A stretch of 64,000 nucleotides of DNA from Dehalococcoidia bacterium (GTDB lineage: Bacteria; Chloroflexota; Dehalococcoidia; SM23-28-2; RBG-16-64-32), in contig CAXXTF010000001.1 of the NCBI GenBank assembly GCA_963665775.2, positions 736,001 through 800,000 on the forward strand. The letters run 5' to 3'. The position numbers were made by a program, and so were the translations under genes. The notes beneath the pieces were generated by a model, which worked only from the letters and a program-made list of their open reading frames with translations, ran no database searches and was not told the origin of the DNA. Shown here piece by piece: positions 28,869 through 49,872 of this stretch (its first letter is position 1; the number at the start of each line of letters is the position of its first letter).

Positions 28869-28870
28869 CA

Positions 28871-29380: not shown

Positions 29381-30313
29381 TTAAGAGGCTGCTTGGATCA
29401 GACGAAGCACGGCTGACGGAGATCGACGGAGACGATAGAGAGCTTGATGCTGACAATTGGTGAGCGGGCGATTTTCGATTCGGGCGAGAATCGCATTCCG
29501 TTGACTGTGCGGAAGATCGCCGATGGCCTGGCGAATAGCGCGTTTGGCCTCGGCCAGCTCGGCCTGGTATTCCAGATCATCCTCGTCGGGCAGTGGTTCA
29601 TCCTGATCGTTGGAAAGGGCCAGCTCCTTGCCATCTCCCGCTCTTCGCCATCCAGGTCCGGCGAGGTCGTCCATCAAGATGTTGGCCAAGGGGGCTCGGC
29701 ACGTAGTAATGAAGTCGGGTATCAACGTATCTTCCGGGATTGCTGCGAATACAACGGGGAGCGCCTGTATCGTGTCCAGTTGCAGTTCACGATTCATTGA
29801 TGTTCCGTGTTGACCGGCCCGTCGGAGCAATTCCGGCTCGACCAGTCGCCAGCGGCGCGGGTGTATCGGTCTCTTGAACCACCGGACTGCTAGTCGCTCA
29901 GCGGCTTCTTCACGCTCGATCTCTGGGTAACGCGAAGATGTGACCCGCGACCAGTCTCCCAGGAACGTGCCGGGCCGGAACGCATCGTCAAAGGCCTTCT
30001 GCATGGCCTCCGACAAGGTGTCGAGGAGGGGCAAGAGGGTATGGCGGAACTTAGCCGCAATCTCATTCATACGGCGGGCCATTTCCGCCACAGGCCGAAA
30101 GTCGATGACCACGTGCCTTAGACCCAGGTGAATTGGAGGGAGGCTAAGAGCTGGGTTAATAGAGCCCGCGAGCTTCACCATGTTAGGACTCCTCAGTAGT
30201 AGCGCTGATGAGTTGATAGCCGAAAGAGCATCGGTCAGCGATCTGCCACATGGTATGGTCGCCCCCGGTCTAATCCGTATCGTCACTTCATTTGTGTCTC
30301 TCAGCATGCTCAC
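29381..30313 (-). CDS. Hypothetical protein with a sigma70 region-4-like C-terminus
   Basis: IRQAIGDLPHSQRNAILAR resembles the L..LP..QR motif of region 4. Start uncertain. Confidence 0.45.
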   Translation of the reverse strand: MSMLRDTNEVTIRIRPGATIPCGRSLTDALSAINSSALLLRSPNMVKLAGSINPALSLPPIHLGLRHVVIDFRPVAEMARRMNEIAAKFRHTLLPLLDTLSEAMQKAFDDAFRPGTFLGDWSRVTSSRYPEIEREEAAERLAVRWFKRPIHPRRWRLVEPELLRRAGQHGTSMNRELQLDTIQALPVVFAAIPEDTLIPDFITTCRAPLANILMDDLAGPGWRRAGDGKELALSNDQDEPLPDEDDLEYQAELAEAKRAIRQAIGDLPHSQRNAILARIENRPLTNCQHQALYRLRRSPSAVLRLIQAAS

Positions 30314-30481
30314 TCGTTCCGCTCAGACGCGGCTCCAGACTATTTGGGGCAGCTGCTAAGACCCTTTACGCCCCATCATATTATACCCGCCCGGGCGATG
30401 TGGTTTCTTACGCGTTCTCGCCGGCCGGAGGCGGCAATTCTGAAATCCGAGACTGCTGATTCAATGAGCGGGAATGAGGGG

Positions 30482-31420
30482 TCACACTTGGAGTGCTCGT
30501 GCCACCATCTGCCAGCCTCGATCCTCCTGTCCCTCCAGCCGTCGCAAGTAGACCGTCGTCACCGCCAGGGAGCTGTGATCCAGGAATTGGCTTACGTCCT
30601 CCACAGATTCACCGGCGTCTCGTCGCAGCTTGGCTGCCGAATGACGGAGGATGTGAACGCCTGCCGGCGGCAGTTCGGCGTGGCGCTTGTAGCGTCGAAG
30701 GTTTCCGTAGAAGCTCCCGCTCGTGATGCCACGGCCTTCAACCGAGTGGCGGGATGGCCAAAGAGATTCGTCGGGGCTCATCGTGTCCAGGCTCTTGCCC
30801 CAGGCCGCAAGGGAGCGCTCGATAGCCTCGAATGCTGGTCGTGGAAGTTCTCTCTTCCCCTGCTTGCCGCCCTTGCCCCGATACGTGTAGAACAGGCCGC
30901 CGGTCTGCAAGATGTCTCCTGCCTTTAGGTTGAGTACCTTGGAGCGTCGTCGCCCGGTCAGCGTTAGGGTCAAGATGATGGCACGGTCGCGGAGGCCGGT
31001 TGGGGAGTCCGGAATTACCTCCAGCAAGCGGCGTATCTCCTCGGCGCTGAGTCCTCTGGGTGGACTAGGTGATGTGCGTGGCCGCTCGATCTCGTCACAC
31101 GGATTCGAGGATACGATCTTCATCCGGATGAGGAATCGGTAGAACGAGCTCAGGCAGGCAAGCCGGGCTCCCACCGTGATCGACGAGGGCTTCTTGCCGG
31201 AGAGCCTCACGCCGTGCGCGAAGACGAACACTTCCTGGCTGGTGATCTCGTTGGGCGGCTTCCCAATCGAGCCGAAGAAGTGCTGCAACATGCGGGAGTA
31301 GCTTTCGACGGTCCGGCGGGAGCCGCTGCGTCGCTCCTTCTCGGCGAGAAAGGCGTAAAAGGCCTGCTGCCAGCCTGGCGTCCGCTCGTCAAAGAGTACA
31401 ATATCGTCAGTCATGCTCAC
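30482..31420 (-). CDS. Tyrosine recombinase (XerC/D-like)
   Basis: N-terminal SAM-like domain (TVESY...LSSFYRFL), RDRAI..TGRR, GKGGK, HILRH and LDHSS..TTVY. No obvious IntI-specific insertion. Confidence 0.93.
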   Translation of the reverse strand: MSMTDDIVLFDERTPGWQQAFYAFLAEKERRSGSRRTVESYSRMLQHFFGSIGKPPNEITSQEVFVFAHGVRLSGKKPSSITVGARLACLSSFYRFLIRMKIVSSNPCDEIERPRTSPSPPRGLSAEEIRRLLEVIPDSPTGLRDRAIILTLTLTGRRRSKVLNLKAGDILQTGGLFYTYRGKGGKQGKRELPRPAFEAIERSLAAWGKSLDTMSPDESLWPSRHSVEGRGITSGSFYGNLRRYKRHAELPPAGVHILRHSAAKLRRDAGESVEDVSQFLDHSSLAVTTVYLRRLEGQEDRGWQMVARALQV

Positions 31421-31456
31421 CTCCTATTCTCAAGTCAGTTAGCATGTTCCCTCTAC

Positions 31457-31482
31457 CGCACACGAAGTCAAGTTAGTGTGCG
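31457..31482. repeat. Putative recombination site 1 (dif-like)
   Basis: CGCACACGAA-GTCAAG-TTAGTGTGCG, 36 nt upstream of the tyrosine recombinase start. Confidence 0.75.
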
Positions 31483-31611
31483 CTTCTATTGCCACTAGTT
31501 GGTCGCTATAATCGCCCCAGGAAACACGCCATATCCAGAAATGCGGCCGGGCTCAGGCATCAACTGGATGCACGCCGTAGCGGGGGCCGCGCCCAGAAGG
31601 AGGCGGTAATC

Positions 31612-31824
31612 ATGGCTAAGGGGGCCACTCTGAAGGTCCCGGCTATTCATTGTCGCGGCTGCTCGAACACCGTAACGAGGACCCTCGAAGCGCTGCCCAC
31701 CGTCCAGGTCACCCAGGCCGATCCAGAGTCGAAGCTGGTGCGTGTGCAGTTCGAAGAGTCAGCCGTTACCCTGGACCGGATCCGGGAGCGCCTGGACGAG
31801 ATCGGCTTCTGCCCAGAGGACTAG
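31612..31824 (+). CDS. Heavy-metal-associated (CopZ-like) chaperone
   Basis: VPAIHCRGC (HCxxC), 70 aa, AAGGAGG RBS. Confidence 0.85.
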   Translation: MAKGATLKVPAIHCRGCSNTVTRTLEALPTVQVTQADPESKLVRVQFEESAVTLDRIRERLDEIGFCPED

Positions 31825-31843
31825 TGCACTAGGTAGCGCAACA

Positions 31844-32746
31844 ATGGCTACATCTCCGCTCGAAGAACCTCGCAAGGCCCTATGGGCCCGCGGGGGCGAG
31901 ACAGGTCAATTCTTGTTCGCGTTGGCCGTAGGGGCAGGCCTGGCCCTCATCAGCTGGTGGGCGGGGATACTGGACACTAACGTGTTTGGCGGCGTCTCGA
32001 GCGAAGCCGTTTCCGCAGGCGGCCCGGGCGCCATGGTGTCAATCGGGGCGGCGTTCGTCATCGGCGCCGCGATGATCGTCCTGCCCTGCGGCTTCCCCTC
32101 GGTGTTCGTGGTGCCCTCAATCCTGGGCTCCCGAAAGGGGCTGGCTCAGCGGAGTGTGCTGAGCGGGCTGTTCCTGCTCGGGAGCGCCCTACCTCTGGTC
32201 GCGGTCGGTGTTGGCCTCGGCTTTGCCGGCGAGGCCGTGCTAGACGCGCTGAGCGAGCAATCGGCGAGGATGAGCTTCTCCGTCGGCCTCTACTCCGCTC
32301 TGGGCATTTTGGCCATCGTCTACGCCCTGGGCGAGCTTGGGCTCTTCAATGTGCCCAGCCTTCTCGGCAGGATCACCGGACCCGACCTGTCTGACCAGGA
32401 GAAGCCCTACCGGCGGGCGCTGGTGCTGGGGGGCACCTTCGGGGGCGGCCTGGGCATCGGCTGCCCCATGCCTACCTACTACATCCTGCTGGGCTGGGTG
32501 GTGGTGGCGGGGGACCCGCTGTACGGGGCGATCCTGCTGGGGGTCTACGGTGTGGGCCGGCTGGTGCCGGCGGTGGCCCTCGGCGCCCTCATTACCGCAG
32601 GGACGGACCGCCGCAAGGTGTCGCACGGGATGACCTCTTTCCGAGAGAGCACGAGCGGTCTGACCAACGGCATCCTCGGAGGCATGGGCTCCTACCTCAT
32701 CGTACTATTCGGCGGCGTCGTCCTCTACCGAACGCTAACGTTGTAG
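31844..32746 (+). CDS. CcdA/DsbD-transmembrane-like protein
   Basis: 6-7 TM segments with LPC and GCP cysteine motifs, plus YGVG. Confidence 0.7.
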   Translation: MATSPLEEPRKALWARGGETGQFLFALAVGAGLALISWWAGILDTNVFGGVSSEAVSAGGPGAMVSIGAAFVIGAAMIVLPCGFPSVFVVPSILGSRKGLAQRSVLSGLFLLGSALPLVAVGVGLGFAGEAVLDALSEQSARMSFSVGLYSALGILAIVYALGELGLFNVPSLLGRITGPDLSDQEKPYRRALVLGGTFGGGLGIGCPMPTYYILLGWVVVAGDPLYGAILLGVYGVGRLVPAVALGALITAGTDRRKVSHGMTSFRESTSGLTNGILGGMGSYLIVLFGGVVLYRTLTL

Positions 32747-32762
32747 TCCCATATGCTAGGAC

Positions 32763-32852
32763 GATGGCAGCCTAAAGTTCGTGAAGGTCGACAACGACGA
32801 GAACGTCGACACCGCCGCTCCCTACGGTATGCGTAGCCTCGTCACACTATGG
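32763..32852 (+). pseudogene. Thioredoxin fragment
   Basis: DGSLKFVKVDNDENVDTAAPYGMRSLVTL matches the thioredoxin K.DVDEN..A..YGIRSIPTL segment. It has no start and no WCxxC. Confidence 0.6.
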
Positions 32853-32866
32853 CGCAATAGTGTCTT
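32841..32866. repeat. Putative recombination site 2
   Basis: GTCACACTAT-GGCGCA-ATAGTGTCTT. Confidence 0.65.
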
Positions 32867-32977
32867 AACCTGGCGTATAATCCCTGATGGACGCAAGGCG
32901 GCTGTGCCTGATCTGCCTGGCGCCTAGCCGGGTGCGAGTCGGTCCCGTGGCACCCCAGGACATCCGGGAATAAAGCG

Positions 32978-34012
32978 TTGCCTACTGCCAAGAACGTTCA
33001 TCTTCCGATGCCGAAGTCTTGGGACGAACTGGAAATTATCGTCTCGGACCTATTCAGCGAGTTTTGGAAGGATCCCTACACGCAAAGAAATGGGCGGTTG
33101 GGTCAGTCCCAGCAGGGGGTCGATATTTTCGGTCAACCAGACCAATCTAGTCGATGGGCCGGTGTACAGGTCAAGCACAAAGAGCCCGGCAGCAATGTCA
33201 CCGAGGAAGAGATACGTGCGGAAATAGCGAAGGCAGATAGCTTTAATCCCGCTCTCGATCGGTTCACAATTGTGACCACAGCTCCGAGCGATTCGGCAAT
33301 CCAAGAGGTGGCCAGGGCGATTACGGAGGAGCGCCGAGCAGTCGGTGATTTCGGTGTTCACGTGTGGGGTTGGGCGGAGGTCGAGCGTCGGCTCGCGGAT
33401 TACCCCCATCTCCTCAAAAAGCACTACTCCGAGTTCTATGAGCATGTCGACGTGGAAAAGGGCCAAGGCCGCGAACTCGAAGCTATGGCTGAGCGCGTGA
33501 GGGAAACCACTGCCAGCCGGGGCCGGGCCAAGGCCTTGGTGCGGATCAAGAACCCTGATTCAGGTCTGGTGGAGAACTGCTATGGTCGCATATCAGGCAT
33601 CATTTGGGAGATGACTAATACCGTGAACAATCAGTTGCAGGTCTGGGACTATCCCATGTACGAAGGAGATGATTTCTTCCTGCACTGGAGTGGTCATGGC
33701 TCAAGACATCACAACTTTCGCACCGAGGCGATTCTCGATGTTGCCACAATGGCGGCTGGTGATGCTGACTATGCCCTTGCAACGGTTGATTACGGCGGCC
33801 GGCCCGCGCGGCTCTCCGCAGGTCAAAGCTACCGCATCACACTGGAGATAGCAGCGGATAATGCCGCGCCGATCACTCGAACGTATCGGTTGTGCTTGAG
33901 TACTGATGCCATTGACTTGGGGACAGACGCTGGAGGGCAGCGCCTTTTCGGAATTGCGGACACAGCCGTCCCTCCCAATGTCGTATTTCAGGATGTCATA
34001 GATACGCTATGA
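32978..34012 (+). CDS. Restriction-endonuclease-like (Mrr/PD-(D/E)XK) N-terminal domain fused to an unknown domain
   Basis: W.ELE, NGRLGQSQQGVDIFG, GVQVK, EI.KA and WGW.EV motifs. Confidence 0.7.
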   Translation: MPTAKNVHLPMPKSWDELEIIVSDLFSEFWKDPYTQRNGRLGQSQQGVDIFGQPDQSSRWAGVQVKHKEPGSNVTEEEIRAEIAKADSFNPALDRFTIVTTAPSDSAIQEVARAITEERRAVGDFGVHVWGWAEVERRLADYPHLLKKHYSEFYEHVDVEKGQGRELEAMAERVRETTASRGRAKALVRIKNPDSGLVENCYGRISGIIWEMTNTVNNQLQVWDYPMYEGDDFFLHWSGHGSRHHNFRTEAILDVATMAAGDADYALATVDYGGRPARLSAGQSYRITLEIAADNAAPITRTYRLCLSTDAIDLGTDAGGQRLFGIADTAVPPNVVFQDVIDTL

Positions 34013-34680
34013 CCTGATATTGATGTGATCGACAGCGCCCTCTTCTACCGCTACGGCATCTGCTTGCCAAACATCTTCCCCTAAGCGCTTTGCTTCGCGA
34101 CTGAGAGTCGGAGCAAAAGCACCAAAATTATCGGCTGTTCACAGGAATGATTTCGGGTAGAGTCCCACAACAGCCAGCATGGAGCCGGCTTTCATCTGCA
34201 ACCCGGATGGCACCCCCTTTGGCGTCGCCGATGACGAATCCGCTAGTGAACCGTGTAGCGCCACGCCGGGCCATTTTCGGGCGTGCGTGTGTGCGTGTCC
34301 TATTTGCGAGTGCGCAGAGGGCTTGACCGGTGTAACCTGATAACTGACAGGGCGCTGATCCCGTCCTTTCGCTACTGTCAGGCCCTCCCGCGCTGCTACT
34401 GACCCACGGCGCAGGAGGGCCAACTTCATCACAGCGAAGCGCAGTCAGCGGCCCAGGCTGCTAGCCACTCTCTGACAGGCGAGGTTTCGCTTAACCTCCG
34501 TCTCCTTGCAGGCGTTATTTCAGGAAAGAGCGGCACATGTCCTGAGGGCGAGTGAGCGTCGCCGCAAAGGGCCTCGCAAACGCCCTCAGTGCCCTGTATA
34601 ATCGGCGACGATTAACTAAGAAATATGAAACCCCCGGCCAAGTTGGCCACAGCCAACATCACGTACCAAGGGAGGGAAAG

Positions 34681-37600
34681 ATGACAGTAGCACCGCCAAG
34701 ATCTCACCTGGGAAGATTAGCCGCTGCCGTGGTAATTATGGGTGCCATCGCGGCTGGCCTCGCCGTATGGCAGGTAGCATTTGCGCATGCGCCGTTCAAC
34801 AACGTTCAACCGAATATTCAAGTGGACTTCAACGCGAGCCCGGGCGTCAGGTCCGCCTCGTCCGGCGGATTAGGCACAGACGTGTACGCTTCGGCGTAGA
34901 AGGGCTCCTCGGTGACCGTCTGTACCGCTAACAACCAGCGGATAGGCACCACCGGGACCCGCCACTTCCAGTATGACGACGGTTTCGATTGGAGTATCTC
35001 CGACCACAGTGGCGCTTCCACGAGCAACAGCGGTAATGATTTCAGTGCCGACGGCCTCCAGCTCTGTACGACTATCACTGACGACGTAGCCACGGGCGGC
35101 CATACCAGGGTCAACCTGTTGTCCGTTGACGATACGGCGGACACGACCACAACACCGTCAGCCGACGTGCGCATTTTCTGGCTGGACATCAACCACGTCC
35201 TCCACACCGGCGAGATTCTGGACGGCGACACGGCCATCAACAAGCCCAGCTCGCACCACCGCATCATCACCGACGGCTGGGACTTCGGGCGCCAAGACAT
35301 CTACTTTAACCCTGATTGGTCATTTTCCTTGAGCATCACGATCCCGGAGATCGTGAGCGCTCAACAGGATGTGGACGGTGATGGCGACCTTGACGACGCC
35401 TTCATCTGCAACCCAGATGGCACCCCCTTTGGCGGCGACAATCAACAGGCGCGGGCAGTGCAGAGTGCTAATGGCGGCGCCGCAGGAACGTTAGAGATCT
35501 GCGTGGACATCCATAGCGACGACGAGGGTACGGACAGAATCAGACTGGAGTTCGACTTCGGTGCCGGTCGTTGTAACGGAACTTGTAGCCCCATACTGGA
35601 CAGCTTTTCCAGCGAATCCATTCGTTCCAACTTCCTGTTCAAGGAGTGGACGCACACGCCGGTGGAGATCGTGCACGTGCAGAGCTTCCCGACCAACACC
35701 GACGGTCAGGTTACCCAACCCAGTCAATGCCGATCTAGAGTTAGAGGTAATCGATAGCCTGATCGACGTTAACGGCGACGGCGTCGTTGACGGCGATGAC
35801 GACGGCGACGTCTGCGGCGTGGCGGTCTTCAGCGGCGAGGTCGACATCAACGCCAGTGGAGACGTCAACAGCGCCGACGACGGCAGCGTGTGTGGAGTGA
35901 CGGTCATCAGCGGTCAGGTTGACATCAACGACGATGGAACCACCGACACCGACGACGACGGTACACTTTTTGGCAGTATGGTCGGACACGACCTGCTGAG
36001 CGTGGACTCAGATGGCGACGGCTTCCTGGACCCAGGGGACACGATCAATAACGACGACAACTGGAACATCATCGGCTCGGCGCACGTGGTGCGGACCAGT
36101 GGCTGGCAGCCGAACTTCGTGGTGGACAGCTGGGAGCTAACGCCGCAGTTCGGGGCCGTCATCACGGTGGTGGCCGGGCCGGCCAGCTGCCAGAACGTGC
36201 TGGCCGACGCCGATTTGCTGGGCGACCCCTTTTTCGCCTTCTTGGATCTGATCGACCAGGATTACGAGGATGCGATCGCCAACGAGCAGTGCATCGCGTT
36301 CATCTCCTCGCGGCCTGGGGAGACCCTGATCAGCCTGAGCTACCACGATGAGGGTGCGGTGGCTGACGGGAACGAGATCAACCAGCCGGACGACTCCGAG
36401 GTGAACGTGGTTGGCCCGCTCATCAAGGAGTGGAGCGAACTGGTGGACTCGGTGATCATCCGGGTGCCGGCGGCCGGCTTCCCGAGCAGCGTGAAGGACG
36501 GCGGCTTCAGCGGCGGGGCGAACAACCACATCGACGACATTGACTGGCAGCACAACAACGACATTCAGGGGACGACGATCACCTCCGATGTGGAGAGGGC
36601 GGTCAAGGTCATCGAGATCTCCCATGGCGAGCACCAGACGGCGTTCGGTCCGGCGGAGGGGATCGGGGTGAAGGTAGACCCGTTCGGAATCGCCCACGTG
36701 GACGTGGACAATGCGGAAGTGGAAGTGACCGTGACGAGCATCAACGGCGGCCTTTCCAAGTGCACCATTGCCACGGTGACCACCTCGCTGGGGTCAAATT
36801 CTACGCTCCTGACCAGTTCTTCGCCTGTCAATGGCCGCACGGGCAGCGTGACAGCGGGGGGCAAGACCCTGGATCACGGTGGCGCCCTGATCACGATCAG
36901 TGCCGGTGGTCCAGGACGTCGCTGTGAAGAGATCGTTGTGATAACGGTCACAGAGAAGTACCCCATCCCGGTGAGCTCCAAGTTCAACGAGGTTGTGTAG
37001 TGGTTCAAGGTGAACTGGACGACCAAGGAGATCTCCAAGCAGCCGCACGTCCGGAAGGCGGGCGAGGAGATCATCCTGGAGCACAAGTGGGGCACGCCGA
37101 GATTCAACATAATCACACAGGACTGGGTGTGCGACCTCGACAGGGGTGGCACGCTGGAGAAGGACACGCTGGTCGTCTACACCGAGTTGAGCGGTCCGGG
37201 CGCCTTGGTTGGAGGTTACGAGAACCTGGGCCAGAGCGACGGAGCCGATTTCATCCCGTCGCTCTTCGGCGGCGACGTGGCCATAGCGGAGGTTACGGTC
37301 GATGGTGACGAGGAAGACGAGGACGATGACCTAATTAACAGCCAGCGTTGCATCTCTCGCGCTCTATACTCCAGCGAAGACCCGGGTGAGGTGGACGTAG
37401 AGGCCGTCCTCTGCCCAGGCGACTGCGACGCAGGCGGCATGACCCAAATCGACCCACCGATGTTGCAGCTCATGGTTGAATCGGCAGTGAACGGTGACGG
37501 GGGCTCGGAGCTACTAGACAAGCACCCGTTCCTGGTCTTCTACGTGAAGATATACAGCGTGGAGGTAAGCCTGGTTCCGGGCGATCTGGTGTTCAGTTCC

Positions 37601-39520
37601 ACCAATAAGGCGAACACGGTGAACGATGGGTTCCAGGTGGACCCGAATGAGGCGAAGTGGAGCCCGACGCCGGACGTATATGAGCCCGGCACTGAGGGCG
37701 ATCTGCCCAGCACCGACGTACGGGACGAGACGCGGATCGTCTCCGACTACTCGCTGGTGCGGGTGAACATCAAGGATTGGGTGCGCACGGCCAACTCCAG
37801 CGGCCGTCCGGACATCTGTCTGGACATGGACGGCGATGGCGGCGGCGACCAGGATGCGGGCATCCCCTACACCAGGACCGCCGACGGCACGGCCGTCACG
37901 ACCCACGCGGGCTGTCCGGACGCTGACGACGAGCTGTTGGCGGGCGGCTACTGGCTGCTGCCTGACGACTGGCAGCGGATGGCCGGGCAGCAGCCTGAGC
38001 TGATACGAGCGGAGTGGGATGTCCTGTGTGGACCCGGTGACACCAGCTGCGGCGGTGCCGGCCTGATCGGCCCCAAGCGGATGGTGGACACCCACGACAG
38101 CAAGGTCAGGTCCTGGGTGCACTACACGACGGTGGTGGCGACATACAAGGTTATCAATGGCGGGATCGACATTAACGGCGACGGCGTGGTAGACGGGGCG
38201 GACGACGGCGTGGTCTGCGGCTTCCGGGTTATCGACGGCAGTGTGGACATCAGCGGCGGTGGAGGCGTCACCTCGTCCGACGACGGGACATTGACGGACT
38301 CCACAACGCAGGTGTACAAGTCGATTCTGTCCAACGGCAAGATCAACATCTGGGATGCCCCGATGCCGCTGGAGAAGGTATCGATCTGGATCGACGGCTC
38401 CGGCAAGCTGTTGGCGGTGGACAAGGATGCGATCTACCCGGCGGGCAACAACCCGTTCTACCAGGTGTTCATCCCGGGGAACGATCTCATACCGGCCCAG
38501 CCTGGCGGCTCTCCTGGCTACGACTGGGACAGCACGATCCAGGGGCCATACGAGTTCTGGCACGCTCTCCAGTGGCTGACGCTGGGGGAGCACGTACAGG
38601 TGTACAGCGATAACCGTGGTCAGGCGATGGCGCTGATCTACGGCGATGACAACCTGAGCTTTACAGACTGCGCCATCGATTCGATCACGGGCACGCCGGT
38701 GTGTGAGCCGGGGGATGTGGTGGGCGACACGACAGTGAGTGCGATCGTCGACTACCCCTACTTCCGCAAGCACCGGGACGTCGAGGGGAACACCGCGACG
38801 ATCACCTGGGAGTGGGCCGGCTACAAGCGGGTAACCGTGGAGCCGGTGGCGGGTGACCCCAACCACACGTACGTGGTGGCCCACCTGCTGGACCGAGACG
38901 GCGAGTGCATAGGAGAGAACCCGACCACAGCCCCCAAGAAGTGGGGAGCCGGGGTGTCTGACGTGAGGCTGGAGCCGGTACACTTCGAGGTTAGCGGTGA
39001 CGGCGTCATCATCGGGGCCGCCCTGGACGGCGGCATCCTTCCCACCCTGAAGCTGGCCGTCGCTCTGGCTGGCGCGGCGGAGGACTTCGGCGGTACGCTG
39101 CCGCGGGCCCACGCCGGCAGTGCGGACGAGTGCCAGGCCTACATCCTGGTGGAACACGGGCGAGATGCCACGGTTCAGGTGTCCATCGGCTTCAACGAGC
39201 CTGAAGGGCTGATCAGGATGTCAATAGAGTTCCCGCAGCAGGAAGTTATCTGGGGCGACATAGATAACGACGGCGATGTGGATGCGGTGGACGCCCTGAA
39301 GATCATGCAGTGGATCGTTGGTCTGCCGGTGGCGACTGATCCGGCGATCGGCGAGGAAGTAACTCTAGTGAATGGAGCGGTAGAGACGCCGGTGATCTGG
39401 GGTGACGTAGACCGAGACGGAGACATCGACTCCGTGGACGCCCTGGAGATCCTGCAGTTCATAGTTGACGGGACGTCGGACACCGATCCGGCGATCGGCG
39501 ACACGGTGACGATCATCTAG
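34681..39520 (+). pseudogene. Giant (~1610 aa reconstructed) secreted surface protein with Ca-binding repeats and a C-terminal dockerin; broken by two TAGs and a +1 frameshift
   Basis: Signal peptide ending AFA. In-frame TAG at 34897-34899 and 36998-37000; frame change near 35713-35722. DINGDG repeats; duplicated dockerin WGD.D.DGD.D.VDAL.I.Q.IV. Confidence 0.8.
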
Positions 39521-39550
39521 GTTGAGCTACAGAAGGAGGGTAAACGGGAG

Positions 39551-40225
39551 ATGATAAAGACATTGGTAGAGCGCAGGGGGTCCTGGCTAGCGTTGCTAGC
39601 CGGGGCCACCCTGCTGGCCCTGGCCGGCTGGCTGGCGGTGACGGGACTGGCCCGGGCGGACGTGAGCTCGCTGGGTATAGGCTCGGCGACGGTAGAGCCC
39701 GGGGACGAGGTGACGCTGAACGTAAGCGCGGTGGCGACTGACCCTGGGGTCGGGGCCTACACGGTGGACGTGGTGTACGACGGCTCGCTGGTGGACGCCA
39801 CGGCGTGCACGTCAGCGGCTGGTGTGTGCAGCATAGACACGGTAGGGATCAACACGGTGCGGCTGACCGGCGGCTTCGCTGCTGGGTCCTCTGGGGATGT
39901 GGGCCTGGGCTCGATCACCTTCAGTGCCGGAGCGACAGAGGGCACGGCGGCGCTGACGGTGAGCATCGTGACGTTGGCTGACCCGGAGGGTGCCGACATC
40001 CTCGTGTCGCCGACAGACGGCAGCATCGCCATCGTGGCGCCTGCGGCGACGCCGACGTCGGAGCCCACGGCAGAGCCGACGCCGACGCCGGGCGGGCTAC
40101 CGCCCACCGGTGGCAGTCCGGCAGGCGGGACTGGTTCGGCGGGCTGGCTGTTGGCCGGGATGATCGGGCTGGGGCTGGCCGCGCTGGGAAGCGGCGCCTG
40201 GGCCGTGGCGCGGATGCGCCGGTAG
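39551..40225 (+). CDS. Cohesin-domain cell-surface anchor with an LPxTG-type sorting signal
   Basis: Signal peptide; cohesin-like beta-sandwich (PGDEVTLNV, GAYTVDVVYD, LGSITF, DGSI); Pro/Thr linker; LPPTG, TM helix, RMRR tail. Confidence 0.8.
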   Translation: MIKTLVERRGSWLALLAGATLLALAGWLAVTGLARADVSSLGIGSATVEPGDEVTLNVSAVATDPGVGAYTVDVVYDGSLVDATACTSAAGVCSIDTVGINTVRLTGGFAAGSSGDVGLGSITFSAGATEGTAALTVSIVTLADPEGADILVSPTDGSIAIVAPAATPTSEPTAEPTPTPGGLPPTGGSPAGGTGSAGWLLAGMIGLGLAALGSGAWAVARMRR

Positions 40226-40262
40226 ATAGCGCCAGCGACAGAGGAAGTTAGGCTTTAGCGAA

Positions 40263-40289
40263 AGGGGCCCCGGTTACCCCGGGGCCCCT
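40263..40289. terminator. GC-rich hairpin after the cohesin gene
   Basis: AGGGGCCCCGG-TTACC-CCGGGGCCCCT. Confidence 0.65.
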
Positions 40290-40376
40290 GGGCATTTGGA
40301 AGCAGCATCCTACTCATGGCTCCTAGAGACTCTGACTGGACAGGATCAACTCTCTGGCTGAAGGGCGTGTCGCCCC

Positions 40377-40402
40377 TGCACACGATCCACACTTAGTGTG
40401 TG
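40377..40402. repeat. Putative recombination site 3
   Basis: TGCACACGAT-CCACAC-TTAGTGTGTG. Confidence 0.75.
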
Positions 40403-40755
40403 TGTCGGCTCCTATTCGTATTCAGATTCGATAAGGTGCCCATCTTCATATGGCTGCTAGGGCTCTAGAGTTCCATCCAGCGGATGTAATCCGCCAGATC
40501 CACCAGCCATAAAACACTTTTCGCCGTTTCGCCGCCTACGCCAGCATTGATCGACTGGGACAGCAAGCAACCAGCCCAGCGGGACGCACCTGAAACTGAC
40601 ATCGCGTGCCCGCGTTCTACATAGCATGATAGGTGCTGTCATCATCCGGAGGCCTTCATGACTGAGGCCACACGCCAGTCGTTCCTCGTCGACCGGATGA
40701 TCCTGGCTGCCATGCTCTACGAAGAAGTGGAGCGTAGTCAGAGGGATCGCAACAA

Positions 40756-42222
40756 TTGAAACTGGGCAAGGACAGCGGGTTCCTGTTCCTAGCGCTGCTG
40801 GCGGTGCTGTTTCTTTGGCTCTTGCTGGACCGTGCTAGGCCCAGGCTGGAGCGGCGGGAAGCCGGGATGGCGAGGCCAGAGCCAGCGCGAGCAGGCCCGG
40901 GAAAGCGCCGGACAAGAGTGCGCAGGCTGGCCCTGGGCCTGGGCACGCTGGTGGCCGCCCTGACAGCCACGGCGGGGACGCTGGCCCTGGTCTCCGCCGT
41001 CGCCAGCCCAGCGGGCGAGCCGGCAGCGGCGCTCTCGCCGACGCTCACCCCCATCCCGACCCGGTCCCCCATCCCGCTAGCGCCCGGTCCGGCGAACGCA
41101 CCGACCCTGGTGACCGCTGGCGGCGACCAGCCGATCGGACCGCAGGCGGCGCCAACCCTGGGAGACATCGCGGAGAACGTGGACCCCTCCACCGAGTTCC
41201 TGGCCCTGAGGGACACTCTGGCCGGACAGATCGAGGCCTACCGAGCGCTCGCTGGCGACATTGAGGTGGCGATAGCGGTGACGGACCTGCAAACCGACCA
41301 GACCATCTCGATTAGCGGGAACGTCGCCCAGCGCACCGGCTGCACGATCAACATGTTCGCCCTGTTCGCGGCCGTGGATGAGTTCCAGGCGGGTCGGGCC
41401 AGCCCTTCGCCCGTCGCCTACAATATCGCCGTCGGCATCGGCCACAGCTATCCACCGCAGGTGAAGCAGCTGCTCGATACGGTGTTCGGCTCGCACTGGA
41501 CGGGCGTTGCGCAGGCCGGCGAGATGATGCGCTCCTGGGGGATGGAGGCGTCCATATTCGATCACCTCCCCTACTATGGGGACGGCAGCCAGAACAACCT
41601 GCTCACCGCCCTGGAGACAAACGCCGTCCTTACGAGGCTCTACCGCGGCGAGATGTTCGAGCCGGAGTGGACAGCTTACACGCTCTCACGTCTACGGGAG
41701 ATCAAGCCGGGGCTCAACTATATGCTGCCTGGTCGGCTGCCCTCGGCCGCCACGGTGGCCCACAAAATCGGCTACTACTGGGATACGGATGGCTGGGTGA
41801 ACAACGATGCCGGGCTCGTGACCTTCACAGGCGCCGACGGTGAGGAGAAATCATACGCCATCACTTACCTTTCACAGCGGGCGCGAACGGAGGCGACCGG
41901 ATACGCCTTCGGGAGCTGGCTCTCGGGCATCGTCTGGGATTGGTTCGACGCCACCTACCGGCTGGAAACGGAGCCCTCGACCCCGCCGCCACCACCACCA
42001 CCACCTGCGCCCCGTCCACCGGCGCCGCTGCCCGCGCCATCCCCGACACTTACTCCGGAGCAGAGCCGATCGACCCCGCCGGCGCCCTCGCCGACGCCAT
42101 CGCCGGCGCCCGAGCCGAGCGCCACACCGACGCTTCCTGCTACGCCGTCGCCAGCGCCGGAGCCCACCCCGGCGGCCACACCCACGCCCCGGCCAGCGCC
42201 GTCCGCAGATCTGGAGCGCTAG
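40756..42222 (+). CDS. Membrane-anchored class A beta-lactamase-fold (serine hydrolase family) protein with Pro-rich linkers
   Basis: IAVTDLQT, GCTIN at the SxxK position, VAHKIG and NDAGLV. Start uncertain. Confidence 0.75.
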   Translation: MKLGKDSGFLFLALLAVLFLWLLLDRARPRLERREAGMARPEPARAGPGKRRTRVRRLALGLGTLVAALTATAGTLALVSAVASPAGEPAAALSPTLTPIPTRSPIPLAPGPANAPTLVTAGGDQPIGPQAAPTLGDIAENVDPSTEFLALRDTLAGQIEAYRALAGDIEVAIAVTDLQTDQTISISGNVAQRTGCTINMFALFAAVDEFQAGRASPSPVAYNIAVGIGHSYPPQVKQLLDTVFGSHWTGVAQAGEMMRSWGMEASIFDHLPYYGDGSQNNLLTALETNAVLTRLYRGEMFEPEWTAYTLSRLREIKPGLNYMLPGRLPSAATVAHKIGYYWDTDGWVNNDAGLVTFTGADGEEKSYAITYLSQRARTEATGYAFGSWLSGIVWDWFDATYRLETEPSTPPPPPPPPAPRPPAPLPAPSPTLTPEQSRSTPPAPSPTPSPAPEPSATPTLPATPSPAPEPTPAATPTPRPAPSADLER

Positions 42223-42308
42223 GCCGGGGGCGACCGCACGCTCGTGATGACCGGCGAGATGTTCTCGAGCGTCAACGTGGCATGACCCTCTAAGAGTGAC
42301 GGCTCAGG

Positions 42309-42334
42309 CGCACACGATGCAGACATGGTGTGCG
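42309..42334. repeat. Putative recombination site 4
   Basis: CGCACACGAT-GCAGAC-ATGGTGTGCG. Confidence 0.75.
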
Positions 42335-42424
42335 TCCATCCCGCCCTCTCGACGCGCCTTGACATATTGCAACGAACCATCAACAATTACCTCACGTCTA
42401 CGCGCGGCAAAGGGGGCGCATAGA

Positions 42425-42676
42425 GTGGCCTCGGGCCTAGAGCTCATCTGGGGATTCGCCTTCATCGGCACAGTCGCAGCCGTCTCAGCATTGCTTCCGA
42501 TCGTCGCCGCCAGCTGGCGCTCCGTCCATGACACTCCTCAGGCGAGAGACCCAACTGTTACACCGGTCCCTGACCCTCTGAAGGTCCCTCAACGCAGCGA
42601 ATCCACGCTGACGTTCACGATTACAACTACCTGTGGCACCCCCACATCCGACGCCTGCATGGCCGACAAGGAGTAA
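42425..42676 (+). CDS. Small membrane-anchored hypothetical protein
   Basis: GTG after AGGGGG; one N-terminal TM; ends 6 nt before the next gene. Confidence 0.4.
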   Translation: MASGLELIWGFAFIGTVAAVSALLPIVAASWRSVHDTPQARDPTVTPVPDPLKVPQRSESTLTFTITTTCGTPTSDACMADKE

Positions 42677-42682
42677 TCGCTG

Positions 42683-43430
42683 ATGCAAGAAGAGGACTAT
42701 ATCAGTGAGGCGAGACGCCTCCAATTCACCGTTCCAACAGACGCGACCCCCGAGCAACGGTTACTCGCCGCCGATATCATCACCTTAGATCACCGCGCGT
42801 ACACATGGCTGAAGCCCGGCACGCGCCAGTGGTCGGGAGTTCTTGCGCTCCTTCACGAAGCCGCGAACATGGGCCTAACAAACAGATCCCTAGAGCCCGC
42901 TCGGAAACTCTACGATCGAGCAGAGGCGACCTACGTTGTCCACCTACAGGCGAATAACAGATTGAGATACATGCTCGGGATCGTAATCGGCGGCCCAGTA
43001 GTGGCATATCTTGCTCTCCTGGTTCTCTGGGATTTGGGGTTCGGTTTCGGCAATGTTTCCAACCTCACCTATGAACTCCTTATCCTATATCCCTTTATTC
43101 GCGGGAATCGGCAGTCTGGCAAGCGTCCTGACGAGAATATCATCGATTGATTTGGGGCAGGAGGTGAGTACTCCGATTCTAATTGCGTCAGCCGCGTTCA
43201 GGCCGTTTGTAGCGATGTTCTTGGCGCTTATCGTCTTCTTCGTATTAGATTCCGAAATTGTCGATATTGAGTTGGGCGGCCTCCCTGGCAAGATAATGAA
43301 GGATGCGGATGGTAAAGTCGTAGGTTTCGATAATAAGACAAACGGATTCTATGTGGTGACCTCGTTCCTGAGTGGCTTCAGTGAGCGCTTTGCAAGAGAC
43401 ATCCTCTCGAGAGTCCCTATCGCTAAATGA
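42683..43430 (+). pseudogene. Multi-TM membrane protein (GFSER-motif type), frameshifted near 43088
   Basis: Frame 1 (...LTYELLIL) continues naturally into frame 2 (IPLFAGIGSLASVLTR...FRP...SGFSERFA); one extra base explains the break. Confidence 0.6.
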
Positions 43431-43631
43431 AAAGGAGCCGCAATCCCAGTGTGCATCTTCAATATTCGTGAACGCGTATGTGCTCGTGCGACGATCGGTA
43501 GGCGCGGTCCAAGTAGGGAGGGGTCGACGTGATGAATAAGCGCACGCTGGCGGGCAAGCCGGTTCCGCTGTTAGCATCGGATTCTGGGTAGGGGCCGGCT
43601 CTGCGTGCGAGCTGGCTAGAAAGGCGCACAC

Positions 43632-44726
43632 ATGAACACGGACAATCGCCAACCGGCTGACGCCGTCTTTGAGGGGGGCGGAGTCACAGGGATCGCCCTG
43701 ATCGGTGCCCTCAGCGTCATGGAGGAGACGTGGACCTGGGAGAACGTGGCGGGGACCTCGGCCGGCGCCATTGTGGCTGTCTTCACGGCCGCCGGCAAGT
43801 CCGCCCAGGATATCGATAAGATCCTCCGCAGCATCAGCCTGAGTGAACTCACCGACACCGGTTGGGAGGAGAAGGTGGACTGGATTCTCTCCCGGCTTTC
43901 GCCCCTCCGCCTCATTCCCGGTGTGGCGATGCTGAGAGAGCACATCTTCAGCGTCATCAAGGACTTCGGTATCTACGAGGGTGACCGATTCATGGAGCTG
44001 GTCACTGAGAATCTCCCGCCCGGCGTGCGCACCTTCGGCGACCTGTTGTACGATCCTGACCTTCCCAAAGATCATCCATATCGCTATAGGCTCCGCGTCG
44101 TGGCCTCCGACATCACCGCTAACCGGATGCTCGTGCTGCCCCAGGACATCCGCCATTTCGATAGAGACCCGGACAAGCTGACCATCGCCGAGGCCCTCCG
44201 GATGAGCATGAGCATCCCGATCTTCTTCGAGCCCTGGAAGCTGACGGACGCTAAGGGAACGGGCCACCTCATTGTGGACGGGGGGGTTCTCAGCAACTAC
44301 CCTATCTGGATGTTTGATGCTCCCATCGGCACGGATCCCACCTGGCCCACATTTGGGTTTGACCTGTACACTCCTGCGAACAAGGCGGATGGCCACCTCC
44401 CCTTTCCGAAGGAAGTAGACGAAGTCAAAAACCTCTTCGACTTCGGCAAGGGTATCTGGGACACAATGTTCTCGGCTATGGACGGCCGTTATATTGCCCA
44501 GCGCCACTGGGCCAGGACCATCGCCATTGACAACTGCAACATCTCCACGGCCCAGTTTGACCTGTCGCGTCAGGACGAAGACCGACTACGGGGGTCAGGC
44601 GTGAGAGCGGCCAGGGATTTCATGGAGGCCTGGGGAGATCCGGTAGAGGGGTTCTCGCGTTGGAAAGCCCAGTACCGTGGCGAGGTGGAGGAGGCCCAGC
44701 GATTTGCCGCCGATCTCTACACCTGA
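43632..44726 (+). CDS. Patatin-like phospholipase
   Basis: FEGGGV, GTSAG and VDGG motifs. Confidence 0.92.
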   Translation: MNTDNRQPADAVFEGGGVTGIALIGALSVMEETWTWENVAGTSAGAIVAVFTAAGKSAQDIDKILRSISLSELTDTGWEEKVDWILSRLSPLRLIPGVAMLREHIFSVIKDFGIYEGDRFMELVTENLPPGVRTFGDLLYDPDLPKDHPYRYRLRVVASDITANRMLVLPQDIRHFDRDPDKLTIAEALRMSMSIPIFFEPWKLTDAKGTGHLIVDGGVLSNYPIWMFDAPIGTDPTWPTFGFDLYTPANKADGHLPFPKEVDEVKNLFDFGKGIWDTMFSAMDGRYIAQRHWARTIAIDNCNISTAQFDLSRQDEDRLRGSGVRAARDFMEAWGDPVEGFSRWKAQYRGEVEEAQRFAADLYT

Positions 44727-44824
44727 CCGCTGCACGTGTGCCGCTATGACAGGCTGAAGAATAGCCCATAGGGACAGGGGGTGACCCCTAATGGGCTAGA
44801 GTGGTCCGGACAAGGAGGCAGAAG

Positions 44825-46000
44825 ATGGCTGGGAGTGTTCCCAAGAATTTCACTCCTGAACAGTGGAAATCTATATTCGTGGCGCTGAACGAGCAAGGTG
44901 TGTCATATGGACTGCCTGCGCAGCGAGTTGACAGTCTCGTATTGGGGAGCTGGAACCTGCGGCAGTTCGGTAACATACAGCTCGACGACAAGAATCGCCC
45001 GAGGGAGCCCGAGGCGTTCCGGTTAATGGCCTCCGTGTTGATGCACTTCGATTTGGTGGCGATCCAGGAGATCAAGGACGATCTGGACAGCCTCCGGCTT
45101 CTGCACCGCTTCTTGCCGGAATACGACCTGGTGGTGTCGGATGTGACGGGAAACTACGAACGGTTGGGGTTCTTTTCTAAGTTCGAGAGGGTGAGGAGGA
45201 CGAATCTGGCGGCGGAGATAGACGTGCCGATGGTCCAGATGCGGTCGATAATCCAGGAGAACTGGGAAGAATTCCAGGATGAGCTAGAGCGGTACGGGCA
45301 AGAGGTGACGGCGGGAAGGAAGTCCCGGATAGAGCTGCCGGCATTCTTGGGGTTCGCCCGGGCCCCGTACTGCGTGAGCTTCGAGGCGGGATGGCGGCAT
45401 GCCCCCCTTCACTTCCTGGCGTACAACGCGCACATCTATTACGGCGAAAAGCACACCGATCGGACCAACGAATTCGTGGCCCTGCTGAACTGGCTGTTTC
45501 GACGATGGGGCTACGCGGAGACGATCTTCTCGCCCAACTTCATCGTGTTTGGGGATATGAATACGGAGGTGGTGGCGAGACACGAGACGACGCTCGAGAC
45601 GCTTCGTGAGCACATACTGAAGCAGGCGAAAGCGTCGCGACGGCGCGCCCTGTCGCGGGCGCGCAAGGAGGGAGATTCACGGCTACTCGATGCGATCAAG
45701 AAGCAGCGCGCTCTCTTTCCATTTCTCACCGGACTGGAGGACATGCCTCCGCCGTCGATCGGGTCGAACCTCACCGGGACGGAGCGGTTCGATCAAATCT
45801 TTCTGCTGATGCGATCGAGAGGCTCGGATACACCGACGGTAGCGGAGTACGGCGTGTTCGACATCCCGTCGCTCGTGAAGAGCGCGCTGAAGGGGTACAG
45901 GCTAACAGACAAGACGCGGACGGATCGAATTCGCCAGCAGATTTCCGATCATATACCGATCTGGATACGGCTCAGGCTACCGGACCCGCTCACGGTGTAG
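44825..46000 (+). CDS. Endonuclease/exonuclease/phosphatase (DNase I-like) protein
   Basis: SWNLRQF, AIQEI, HIYYG, GDMN, FDQI and SDH motifs; AAGGAGG RBS. Confidence 0.85.
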   Translation: MAGSVPKNFTPEQWKSIFVALNEQGVSYGLPAQRVDSLVLGSWNLRQFGNIQLDDKNRPREPEAFRLMASVLMHFDLVAIQEIKDDLDSLRLLHRFLPEYDLVVSDVTGNYERLGFFSKFERVRRTNLAAEIDVPMVQMRSIIQENWEEFQDELERYGQEVTAGRKSRIELPAFLGFARAPYCVSFEAGWRHAPLHFLAYNAHIYYGEKHTDRTNEFVALLNWLFRRWGYAETIFSPNFIVFGDMNTEVVARHETTLETLREHILKQAKASRRRALSRARKEGDSRLLDAIKKQRALFPFLTGLEDMPPPSIGSNLTGTERFDQIFLLMRSRGSDTPTVAEYGVFDIPSLVKSALKGYRLTDKTRTDRIRQQISDHIPIWIRLRLPDPLTV

Positions 46001-46055
46001 GAATCGCGTTCGTTAGGGCGCCCTGCGGGGCTCTTTGCCAGCCCAGCCCATGTCT

Positions 46056-46081
46056 AGCACACGATCGACACATAGTGTGGT
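46056..46081. repeat. Putative recombination site 5
   Basis: AGCACACGAT-CGACAC-ATAGTGTGGT. Confidence 0.75.
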
Positions 46082-46384
46082 CACCGTGCTGGCCCCTAAT
46101 AGGCCGCATTGTACCGTCGATCCTCAAGCCCCGTATTTAGCCAGAGTACGTCCAGGCCGTATACGGCTGGGCCACTATTACTGGCCGTTTTCATGCCCCG
46201 TGACTTGACCTCGGACGTTGCGCCCTCTGTTTGCCGGAGCGGGACAAATAGCTTTCAGCTATTTCGTGTATAATCACTGCATATAGTAATTATGTGGTCG
46301 ATAGTCACAGGCGCGGCGCCATCGGTCAGTAGGGCAGCCGAGGTCTCCTGACTATAATCGGCCCTAGGCAGGACAGCGTGCAAG

Positions 46385-48949: not shown

Positions 48950-49467
48950 GTAATCGAAACCCCTGGCTAAATACTGGCCAGCGTACGATAGCTTCCCGTT
49001 GCCGACCTCTGGGAGAAGCCGGGGGATGTCGGGATCCCGTCTGAGGCTGCGGGAATGGCCGCCGCAGAGGCAGAGGCCCATGCCATAGCCCATATGTGCA
49101 CTTCTGCGCGGCCCGGATTTAGTGAATGGTTCGACGCAGGCTGGGTTCCTATTTGCGAGGCCAAAGACCTGACGGAGCAGGGCTGGCTAGTGGCATCTGA
49201 TATGCACAAATCGGCTCACCTTGGTATGGGGGTGCCTGGCTCCCAACAGGAGGCTGCTTCATCCTTAGCGGCACCCGTCATGCCCGTCTACGCAGGTATC
49301 TAGGTGCATAGTATTGCGACCTTGTCCCGAAATACAATGTAGCGGAAGCCGCTCACTCAGTCGTAAACGCAAGGAGGTCCCCATGGCCAGCATGTTCATC
49401 CGTCGTCAGGGCTGATACTGAGAAGATAGGTCCGTCGCAACGACTACCCAGAAAGAGAGAGATTCAG

Positions 49468-49872
49468 ATGCAGGATCAAATCCCAAGGCCGCTGCCTCAA
49501 CCCAATCTCGATACACAGCCCTATTGGGACGCAGCCAAGCAGGGCAAGCTGGTCGTCCAATACTGTCCCCAGACCGGAAAGTATCAGCATCCTCCGAAGC
49601 CGTCAATGGCGGGATGCAGATTTGACTTCGAGTGGAAGGAGGTGAAGGGCATCGGTAAGATATACTCCTTCACTATCGTAGGTCCTCCTGCGCATCCGGC
49701 CTTCGAGCCGCCGTACGCGGTCATTTTAGTTGAAATCGATGACGCGCCCGGGGTACGCATAATCGCAAACATCAAGGGCGTCGAACCGGAGAAGCTGGAG
49801 ATCGGGATGCCGGTCAAGGTCCAGTTCGAGACCGTGGAGGACATAACTCTGCCCTATTTCGTCCCGGCGTAG
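49468..49872 (+). CDS. Zn-ribbon/OB-fold (DUF35/ChsH2-like) protein
   Basis: PYWDAAKQGKLVVQ.C, G.IYSFT, PY and IGMPV.V.F motifs. Confidence 0.85.
   Translation: MQDQIPRPLPQPNLDTQPYWDAAKQGKLVVQYCPQTGKYQHPPKPSMAGCRFDFEWKEVKGIGKIYSFTIVGPPAHPAFEPPYAVILVEIDDAPGVRIIANIKGVEPEKLEIGMPVKVQFETVEDITLPYFVPA

Follow-up and report, generated by a model that had tools for sequence, protein, structure and literature searches.

The closest known system to the locus described here is that of the XerCD/pdif modules on Rep_3 plasmids of Acinetobacter. In the available parts of the papers on these plasmids the dif modules show extensive diversity (PMC13141974, PMC6449649), and their flanking sites are mostly inverted, with alternating C and D modules (PMC11705084, PMC13141974). 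According to the available sections of one of these papers, recombination between Xer sites on different plasmids was confined to those with closely related central regions, for which exchange by cointegration and resolution was proposed, and the flanking sites of a module, which differ in their central region, did not delete that module; the xrs sites carry an ATAA / TTAT motif (PMC11705084). The attC sites of integrons are described, in the accessible text of a further paper, as recombining in the form of folded single strands (PMC4792948). The DNA analysed here is a stretch of 64,000 nucleotides from an uncultured soil Dehalococcoidia bacterium (contig CAXXTF010000001.1, positions 736,001 to 800,000), hereafter called the window. 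It is the left part of an integrative element inserted in comM, and contains an array of 26-bp sites next to a gene for an Xer-like tyrosine recombinase. Each site consists of 10-bp inverted arms around a 6-bp spacer (10-6-10). The window lies on C1, one of two contigs (C1 and C2) of this genome's assembly, which totals 2.35 Mb with 63% G+C.

Like the Acinetobacter dif modules, the modules of this element end at Xer-type sites in which two arms enclose a central region of 6 bp, as seen in an alignment of 116 sites. Unlike those modules, as far as the available parts of the papers describe them, the sites all point one way. In addition, the spacer classes keep one order across genera, and a gene for an Xer-like recombinase of a separate family adjoins the first site. 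The carrier is also different: in place of a Rep_3 plasmid there is an element of the chromosome, inserted in comM, that has genes for a serine integrase, a ParB-methylase and a primase-like protein. Finally, the 10-bp arms with inner CAC-N-AT / AT-A-GTG do not resemble the ATAA / TTAT motif given for xrs sites in the text available. An earlier reading of the same DNA, made from its letters alone (the sequence-only reading), had proposed a platform distinct from both integrons and pdif modules. The distinction from integrons stands, but that from pdif modules has to be given up in part, because a model of exchange between matching central regions is already present in the available sections of the Acinetobacter work (PMC11705084).

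With integrons the locus shares a divergent tyrosine recombinase gene beside the first site, followed by unrelated cargo that is delimited by sites. Integrons encode IntI, which has a specific additional domain, and their attC sites are long imperfect palindromes; their cassettes enter at attI and can be reordered. The present locus differs in having no IntI signature, 26-bp duplex-type palindromes without a selected hairpin, multigene slots and a fixed order of site classes. Lacking IntI, attC and any shuffling of the order, the system is not an integron. In shufflons (Rci and similar) one tyrosine recombinase gene also stands beside several short sites; these are mutually inverted and drive inversions, whereas the sites here are direct and the evidence is of exchange between copies. 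A further likeness is with engineered cassette exchange using heterospecific lox or FRT sites, in which sites that differ only in their spacer do not cross-react. Sites with unlike spacers would likewise allow an in-register swap and not a deletion. The engineered systems are laboratory designs with two site variants, whereas the arrangement here is natural and has approximately 11 variants, to which the rule would apply by analogy. Among the papers found on heterospecific sites and cassette exchange, in the parts available, all concern engineering. As far as the literature was searched, no description was found of a fixed order of approximately 11 unlike spacers across genera.

In the window the strict motif has four exact matches (31459, 40379, 42311 and 46058), with 0.00 expected from 100 shuffles. 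When up to three mismatches to the consensus are allowed, 32843 is added, and the total of nine strand-hits compares with a mean of 0.21 in the shuffles, of which 0 out of 100 reach nine. A position weight matrix (PWM) was built on the arms alone, without the spacer columns, with seed sites taken by coordinate from the genome. At a score of at least 9 in the 64-kb window this matrix returns the five sites claimed by the sequence-only reading, each at its claimed coordinates, and a sixth at 34001, and nothing else. The observation is thus larger than was claimed. The sixth site had been put forward as a degenerate candidate; it is real, because its spacer, GACCTG, is the class of equal rank in other arrays. 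GACCTG is in fact the commonest spacer in the arrays of other genomes (16 of 60 arms-only sites), where its rank is always after GGCGCA/GATGCA. The five sites are intergenic relative to the open reading frames (ORFs) accepted as genes, as had been proposed, and the sixth overlaps a stop codon. Likewise, the 36-nt distance between site 1 and the recombinase gene is reproduced (the site starts at 31457 and the start codon ends at 31420), and the arms-only PWM agrees with the earlier inspection by eye in finding no sites in the window's 27 kb of flanking core DNA.

Genome-wide, 50 sites score at least 14, against 8 in a reversed-genome control, and 29 score at least 20, against 0 in the control. 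Lower-scoring sites with a recurrent spacer add 23 (0 in the control), giving a total of 73. The strand-normalised spacer counts are CGACAC 8, TAACTC 5, GCAGAC 5, CCGGCA 4, TCAGCC 4, GTCAAG 3, GAAGTC 3, CCACAC 3 and GGCGCA 2. The sites of this genome are real, and are specific to the arrays into which they are clustered. Read in the direction away from the recombinase, the arrays follow the overall order GTCAAG, GGCGCA, GACCTG, CCACAC, GCAGAC, (GGGAAC), GAAGTC, CGACAC, TCAGCC, TAACTC, CCGGCA, and all canonical spacers lie on one strand, in direct orientation throughout. Arrays beside orthologues of the recombinase in other genomes show the same series, with ATTGCR before GTCAAG, and GGGAAC and CGGAAG after GCAGAC. 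From 27 compiled arrays, two were used to set the ranking and the other 25 to test it. The test gave 107 concordant, 4 discordant and 3 tied site pairs, and 0 of 10000 within-array shuffles reach 107. In addition, 34 of the 60 distinct arms-only sites in other genomes have a spacer identical to one of this genome, where about 1% would be expected. The spacer classes keep their order both among the arrays of one genome and from genome to genome; what differs is the cargo.

Homology between copies of the modules starts and stops inside the sites, in keeping with the earlier proposal that the sites bound functionally unrelated modules. The segment 46060-49035 has a duplicate at C2:218803-221778 (97.8% identity) in which the homology starts within the left arm of site 6, and a duplicate of 40554-42331 at C2:196617-194822 (97.8% identity) stops at the last base of the site-5 spacer. 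Site 1 occurs with the same recombinase-side flank at C2:60946 and C2:241035, and the DNA beyond it is unrelated. For site 5, the left flank, left arm and spacer are common to three sites with three unrelated right flanks; for site 6, the right side is common to three sites and the left flanks are unrelated. Among the 198 same-spacer pairs in the genome, 23 have at least one conserved flank of 60 nt, and the conservation is one-sided in 22 of these and two-sided in one. The clearest case is provided by arrays B and E, which share a single slot of about 1 kb with both ends at sites: the identity is 32-52% over the 400 nt before the CCACAC site, 88-100% from this site to the GCAGAC-class site 1 kb further on (about 97% over the slot), and 40-56% beyond it. 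Of the 16 alignments of at least 300 nt listed for other genomes, 7 have an end no more than 33 nt from a site.

The content of the slots is variable. Slot 1 of the window and slot 1 of array B, which holds a protein with a metallo-beta-lactamase fold, have no similarity, and slots bounded by the same two classes can be as short as 0.56 kb or longer than 10 kb. The 234 ORFs in 95 compiled slots yield 24 homologous pairs between arrays (E < 1e-10, at least 60% cover). For the pairs with at least 69% identity, the left spacer class is common to both members in 11 of 12, and the twelfth involves a two-mismatch variant of the class. The 98% identical homolog of the slot-6 molybdopterin oxidoreductase, for example, lies in the CGACAC slot of array C. 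Since the cargo is mostly unrelated and the near-identical pairs share their left spacer class, the slots are to be regarded as variable loci, with close copies of a module residing at the same address. The remark in the sequence-only reading that the cargo lies on one strand applies to the window, where all cargo genes are on the + strand, but not in general, as the cargo of array B is on both strands.

These observations are probably explained, with some reserve, by mutually incompatible sites that keep each array stable, while co-resident elements swap their modules in register. The tyrosine recombinase of the element would bind the arms as a dimer and exchange strands across the spacer. 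Cre/lox, FLP/FRT and XerCD/dif recombine productively only between sites with the same spacer, and by analogy with these systems same-spacer sites alone would recombine productively here. The sites of one array would then be inert to each other, such that the array would not delete itself. Between co-resident elements, present as tandem copies or through an incoming circle, a crossover at class X would give a cointegrate or hybrid, and a second crossover at class Y would swap the X-Y segment in register. The outcome would be a series of numbered slots with exchangeable content, and not capture and shuffling of the integron type. The wider proposition is that of a natural addressable cassette exchange, with approximately 11 incompatible spacers in fixed order, slots conserved across Dehalococcoidia genera and a dedicated family of Xer-like recombinases. 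The chances of this proposition being true or false are judged to be evenly balanced.

The positions of the sites connect them with the recombinase gene. Upstream DNA is available at 22 loci; the recombinase start codon has a site no more than 110 nt away in 11 of them and no more than 6 kb away in 20. The site density is 2.95 per 10 kb on the start side of the gene versus 0.56 on the other side. Upstream of the orthologues, conservation extends over the GTCAAG word and the arm preceding it, but not over the variable distal side. In three orthologous loci a GGCGCA-type site comes directly after GTCAAG, where the window has a slot 1 of 1.36 kb; because the next site follows GTCAAG at once, slot 1 is taken to be empty in these loci and filled in the window. 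Motif counts in the seven genomes with a close orthologue are, with the control in brackets, 38 (1), 11 (1), 7 (1), 26 (0), 6 (2), 9 (0) and 11 (2), compared with a median of about 2.5 in 34 genomes without a close orthologue. From this arrangement we infer that the adjacent recombinase acts on the sites.

Several points weigh against in-register exchange by this recombinase. The enzyme is assigned to the sites by position only, and the rule of spacer identity is borrowed, by analogy, from other tyrosine recombinases. The statistics on order and spacers overstate the independence of the data, because the compared genomes are kin and their arrays share descent. Some junctions are displaced from the sites: the array in the window ends at 49035, at a junction without a site and short of 49872, to which the sequence-only reading had extended it, and the left end of the slot-4 duplicate, at 40554, is off-site by 150 nt past site 4. 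In several orthologous loci GTCAAG lacks a recognisable distal arm, with the next site within 7 nt; such an incomplete site may represent a half-site or belong to the recombinase promoter. In public sequence data 7 runs in 3 studies were found, of which four, all contig sets, were compared with 30400-50300; over this region they contain no joint at any site among listed joints with 21-52 matching letters on the shorter side, and their contigs break at repeat borders already present in the genome. Arrays C and E have no adjacent recombinase gene. Finally, in three metagenome-assembled genomes (MAGs) of one genus, which are 81-86% complete, a close orthologue could not be found, the best matches having E values of about 1e-20 to 1e-23. 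The motif nevertheless matches 11, 7 and 6 times in these MAGs (controls: 0, 2 and 1), and the spacers CCACAC, GCAGAC and GGGAAC that occur there are canonical.

The last two points would be accounted for if the sites were substrates of the host's housekeeping Xer, as pdif is for XerCD in Acinetobacter, with the adjacent gene serving to resolve dimers or to regulate. The layout of arms and a 6-bp spacer is Xer-like, and the best solved relatives of the recombinase in a search of the PDB are XerD (E 1.1e-13) and XerA, with E 6.2e-07 for IntI4. Furthermore, a separate Xer-like protein of about 317 amino acids (aa), with 27-29% identity, is conserved in every relative searched but one; in this genome it is encoded at C1:734654-735484. 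Neither the cumulative GC skew nor a lone perfect palindrome at C1:629759 led to a usable assignment of the host dif. The explanation by the housekeeping Xer is nevertheless considered unlikely. The presence of a site no more than 110 nt from the start of the element's recombinase in half of the 22 loci, a fivefold higher density on that side and motif counts that peak in genomes with an orthologue all point to the element's own enzyme, of which two intact copies are present here that could serve the other arrays in trans. The enzyme itself does not have the status of a housekeeping Xer: its scores are below the equivalog cut-offs of the curated NCBIfam models (XerD 106 bits for a cut-off of 330, XerC 99 for 335 and XerA 104 for 220), and it is not universal and single-copy in the relatives. 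Close orthologues (74-79% identity) occur in 6 of 40 other relatives searched, often in multiple copies. Orthologues were identified at 24 loci in genome contigs, all from Dehalococcoidia or Chloroflexota MAGs, and in public data the family comprises 3605 protein clusters at E <= 1e-40, for which the source names are only XerC, XerD or integrase. In an alignment with XerD the RDR, GKGGK, H-x-x-R-H, DHS and VY motifs are kept, which presumably hold the catalytic Arg, Lys, His-x-x-Arg, His and Tyr; judged by its sequence, the recombinase looks active.

An integron-like platform, in which circular cassettes are captured singly at the recombinase-proximal site and reshuffled within the array, was the interpretation given in the sequence-only reading. 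It fits with the layout of a divergent recombinase, a proximal site and then the array, with a slot 1 that is filled in the window and essentially empty in three orthologous loci, and with the single strand of the window cargo. However, capture at one end and shuffling are difficult to reconcile with the fixed spacer order (107 concordant and 4 discordant pairs), and this part of the earlier interpretation is abandoned. The window has no cassette flanked by two sites with the same spacer, the cargo of array B uses both strands, and slots extend up to 6 kb with several genes. As the sequence-only reading had noted, the recombinase is not an integron integrase: the NCBIfam integron-integrase models give 49.7 bits (cut-off 265) and 31 bits (cut-off 435), covering residues 31-204 only, and are outscored by the XerD, XerA and XerC models. 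It was also correct that attC hairpins are absent. At the four outer arm positions no covariation is observed, the complementarity being no higher than with arms shuffled among the 116 distinct oriented sites, and the single-strand folding energies of the window sites range from -3.1 to -12 kcal/mol, the folding being weak and indistinct from shuffles in 4 of 6. A hairpin or attC reading of the sites was rejected on these grounds. The consensus of the 116 sites has inner CAC-N-AT, six bases and AT-A-GTG, with a right (distal) arm that is conserved more strongly than the left (proximal) arm. As a sequence pattern this would fit two independently bound half-sites on duplex DNA. Overall, single-cassette capture is regarded as rather improbable.

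The palindromes may, alternatively, be operators or other regulatory sites of a DNA-binding protein encoded by the element, in which case the mosaic would be due to homologous or illegitimate recombination. Most sites lie between genes, promoter-like hexamers come after several of them, and site 1 overlaps the upstream region of the recombinase gene. In contrast, homology is lost within the 26 bp in 22 of 23 informative pairs, a length of 26 bp is very short for RecA-dependent exchange, and the 1-kb slot shared by arrays B and E has both of its ends at sites. Moreover, the spacer is the most conserved part of the site across genomes, whereas dimeric regulators usually do not read it, and one class lies inside the 3' end of a methylase gene and another over a stop codon. 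A regulatory role with secondary recombination is therefore very improbable. The possibility that the sites are small repeats of the repetitive extragenic palindromic (REP) or miniature inverted-repeat transposable element (MITE) kind, spread by a transposase, was rejected on the site distribution and is scarcely credible, because these short imperfect palindromes, in approximately 73 copies mostly between genes, are clustered and co-oriented beside a tyrosine recombinase gene with their variants in one fixed order, are absent from the window's 27 kb of core DNA and have arms without hairpin covariation.

If the exchange of modules between like-spacer sites is correct, Xer-type module exchange is not peculiar to Acinetobacter plasmids: an uncultured lineage that is abundant in soil would use it widely and in organised form, with a recombinase of its own and conserved "addresses". 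Gene cassettes would then have a third mode of organisation in addition to integrons and pdif modules, by which related integrative elements trade multi-gene modules in register and never delete their own cargo. The fixed order of unlike spacers would offer a simple answer to the question how dif-type arrays with direct sites avoid self-deletion and yet stay exchangeable. One small recombinase with approximately 11 natural orthogonal sites would also be attractive for multiplexed cassette exchange. For annotation, the sites give the boundaries of accessory modules in Dehalococcoidia MAGs at the level of the base pair.

Table 1. Coordinates of the features of the element in the window, and composition of the site arrays in the genome. 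Positions are those of the window unless a contig is named.
Feature	Position	Strand	Remarks
comM 5' fragment (truncated Mg-chelatase-like ATPase), left junction of element	26249..27394	+	Pfam ChlI and Mg_chelatase, profile positions 1-171 of 207 only
Large serine recombinase, presumed integrase of element	27276..28871	-	Pfam Resolvase, Recombinase, Zn_ribbon_recom; PHROG integrase phrog_95, E 7.6e-80
310-aa ORF between the two recombinase genes, downstream of tyrosine recombinase 3' end	29381..30313	-	
Xer-like tyrosine recombinase, 312 aa	30482..31420	-	Pfam Phage_integrase and SAM-like N-terminal domain
Site 1, spacer GTCAAG	31457..31482	+	PWM 28.9; 36 nt from recombinase start codon
Slot 1: HMA-domain protein and 334-aa ORF	31489..32746	+	Pfam HMA
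Site 2, spacer GGCGCA	32841..32866	+	PWM 26.5
Slot 2: 344-aa ORF, no family	32978..34012	+	
Site 3, spacer GACCTG, degenerate arms	34001..34026	+	PWM 9.4; overlaps stop codon of ORF 32978-34012
Slot 3 (6.35 kb): several ORFs including 479-aa, 836-aa (weak dockerin match) and 224-aa (weak cohesin match)	34027..40376	+	
Site 4, spacer CCACAC	40377..40402	+	PWM 30.1; equal class and rank in arrays B, E and other genomes
Slot 4: 488-aa protein with Beta-lactamase2 domain	40756..42222	+	Pfam
Site 5, spacer GCAGAC	42309..42334	+	PWM 28.0
Slot 5: 155-aa ORF, patatin-like phospholipase, weak endonuclease/exonuclease/phosphatase-family match	42683..46000	+	Pfam
Site 6, spacer CGACAC	46056..46081	+	PWM 30.6
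Slot 6: molybdopterin oxidoreductase, 854 aa	46385..48949	+	Pfam
Array end, away from any site	49030..49040	.	Homology to paralogous module stops at 49035; other two copies continue, one to TAACTC site
Array A	window		GTCAAG, GGCGCA, GACCTG, CCACAC, GCAGAC, CGACAC
Array B	C2:241-259 kb		GTCAAG, GGCGCA, GACCTG, CCACAC, GCAGAC, GAAGTC, CGACAC, TCAGCC, TAACTC, CCGGCA
Array C	C2:218-231 kb		CGACAC, TCAGCC, TAACTC, CCGGCA
Array E	C2:981-970 kb	minus	CCACAC, GCGGAC, GAAGTC, CGACAC, TCAGCC, TAACTC, CCGGCA

The coordinates of the element in the window and the composition of the arrays are given in Table 1. The backbone of full element copies consists of the large serine recombinase, the Xer-like tyrosine recombinase, a ParB-DNA-methylase fusion and a primase/polymerase-like protein. 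Their cargo region is located between the tyrosine recombinase and methylase genes and has up to approximately 11 of the 26-bp sites. The GGCGCA class of site 2 has an equal rank in array B and in four loci of the comparison set (L013, L015, L019 and L036). At the left junction the serine recombinase gene abuts the truncated comM (26249-27394), and the only match to Mg_chelatase_C in the whole genome is found on the other contig, at C2:263042-263335, which agrees with the earlier description of a comM island. The two halves of comM are thus split over the contigs, with the 5' part beside array A on C1 and the C-terminal domain directly after array B (C2:262472-263353). Should C1 continue at its end into the start of C2, approximately 357 kb and several more site clusters would separate the halves. 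Such an arrangement would suggest either tandem elements in a very large composite or elements that have rearranged with one another.

The serine recombinase has a paralogue with 93% identity at C2:235623-237188, and homologues (36-64% identity) stand beside the tyrosine recombinase in 8 other loci. The tyrosine recombinase has a paralogue with 91% identity at C2:240069-240998 and a remnant at C2:60738-60909. At this remnant (C2:60738-60971) the gene is deleted, the GTCAAG site and the upstream region are intact, and the locus is fused to the end of a copy of the molybdopterin oxidoreductase gene. Of the latter gene (window 46178-48997) at least five further copies with 75-98% DNA identity are present in the genome, including C2:58132-60692, C2:218803-221778, C1:53996-56859 and C2:1167243-1172540; three copies adjoin array sites or the recombinase remnant.

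At the far end of full arrays the gene for the ParB-N6/N4-methylase, with a CCGGCA site in its 3' end, is followed by the primase/polymerase-like gene. This last class lies within the 3' coding end of the methylase at C2:231362-231387, 258991-259016, 970007-970032 and 983919-983944. The four copies have identical or near-identical arms, and recombination there would swap the C-terminal tail of the methylase. Backbone ORFs of 310, 413 and 401 aa belong to no informative family, the 401-aa protein matching one PHROG of unknown function. The 310-aa ORF of the window gives no match in Pfam, PHROG or NCBIfam and has no homologue in the compared loci or in the rest of the genome. The region between 20 and 55 kb of the window contains no Rfam family and no tRNA or tmRNA gene. 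Just past the end of the array, at 50486-51678, lies an insertion sequence (IS) element with an rve_3 transposase, of which the genome holds many full or partial copies with 81-96% identity; this IS element may have caused the truncation at 49035.

Relatives of the recombinase are also found at three loci on viral contigs, one of which has no upstream DNA. The relative with 64% identity is accompanied by sites with other spacers, and that with 37% identity by weak sites only. On the IMG/VR contig of the 64%-identical recombinase (L050), the array side shows the same arm motif with the spacers GGCCAA, CACCCG and GGCTTG, a sequence difference which hints that the sets of spacers may differ between exchange groups.

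The large ORFs of slot 3 with the weak dockerin and cohesin matches have internal repeats of 74-76% identity, both inside single ORFs and from one ORF to another (window 35745-35883 / 38148-38286 and 39245-39354 / 39392-39501), which suggests that they encode repeat-domain surface proteins. An isolated site at C1:629759-629784 has the arm motif of the arrays, perfect symmetry and the palindromic spacer GACGTC; it is located in an intergenic position distant from the arrays, and might be the host dif or an operator.

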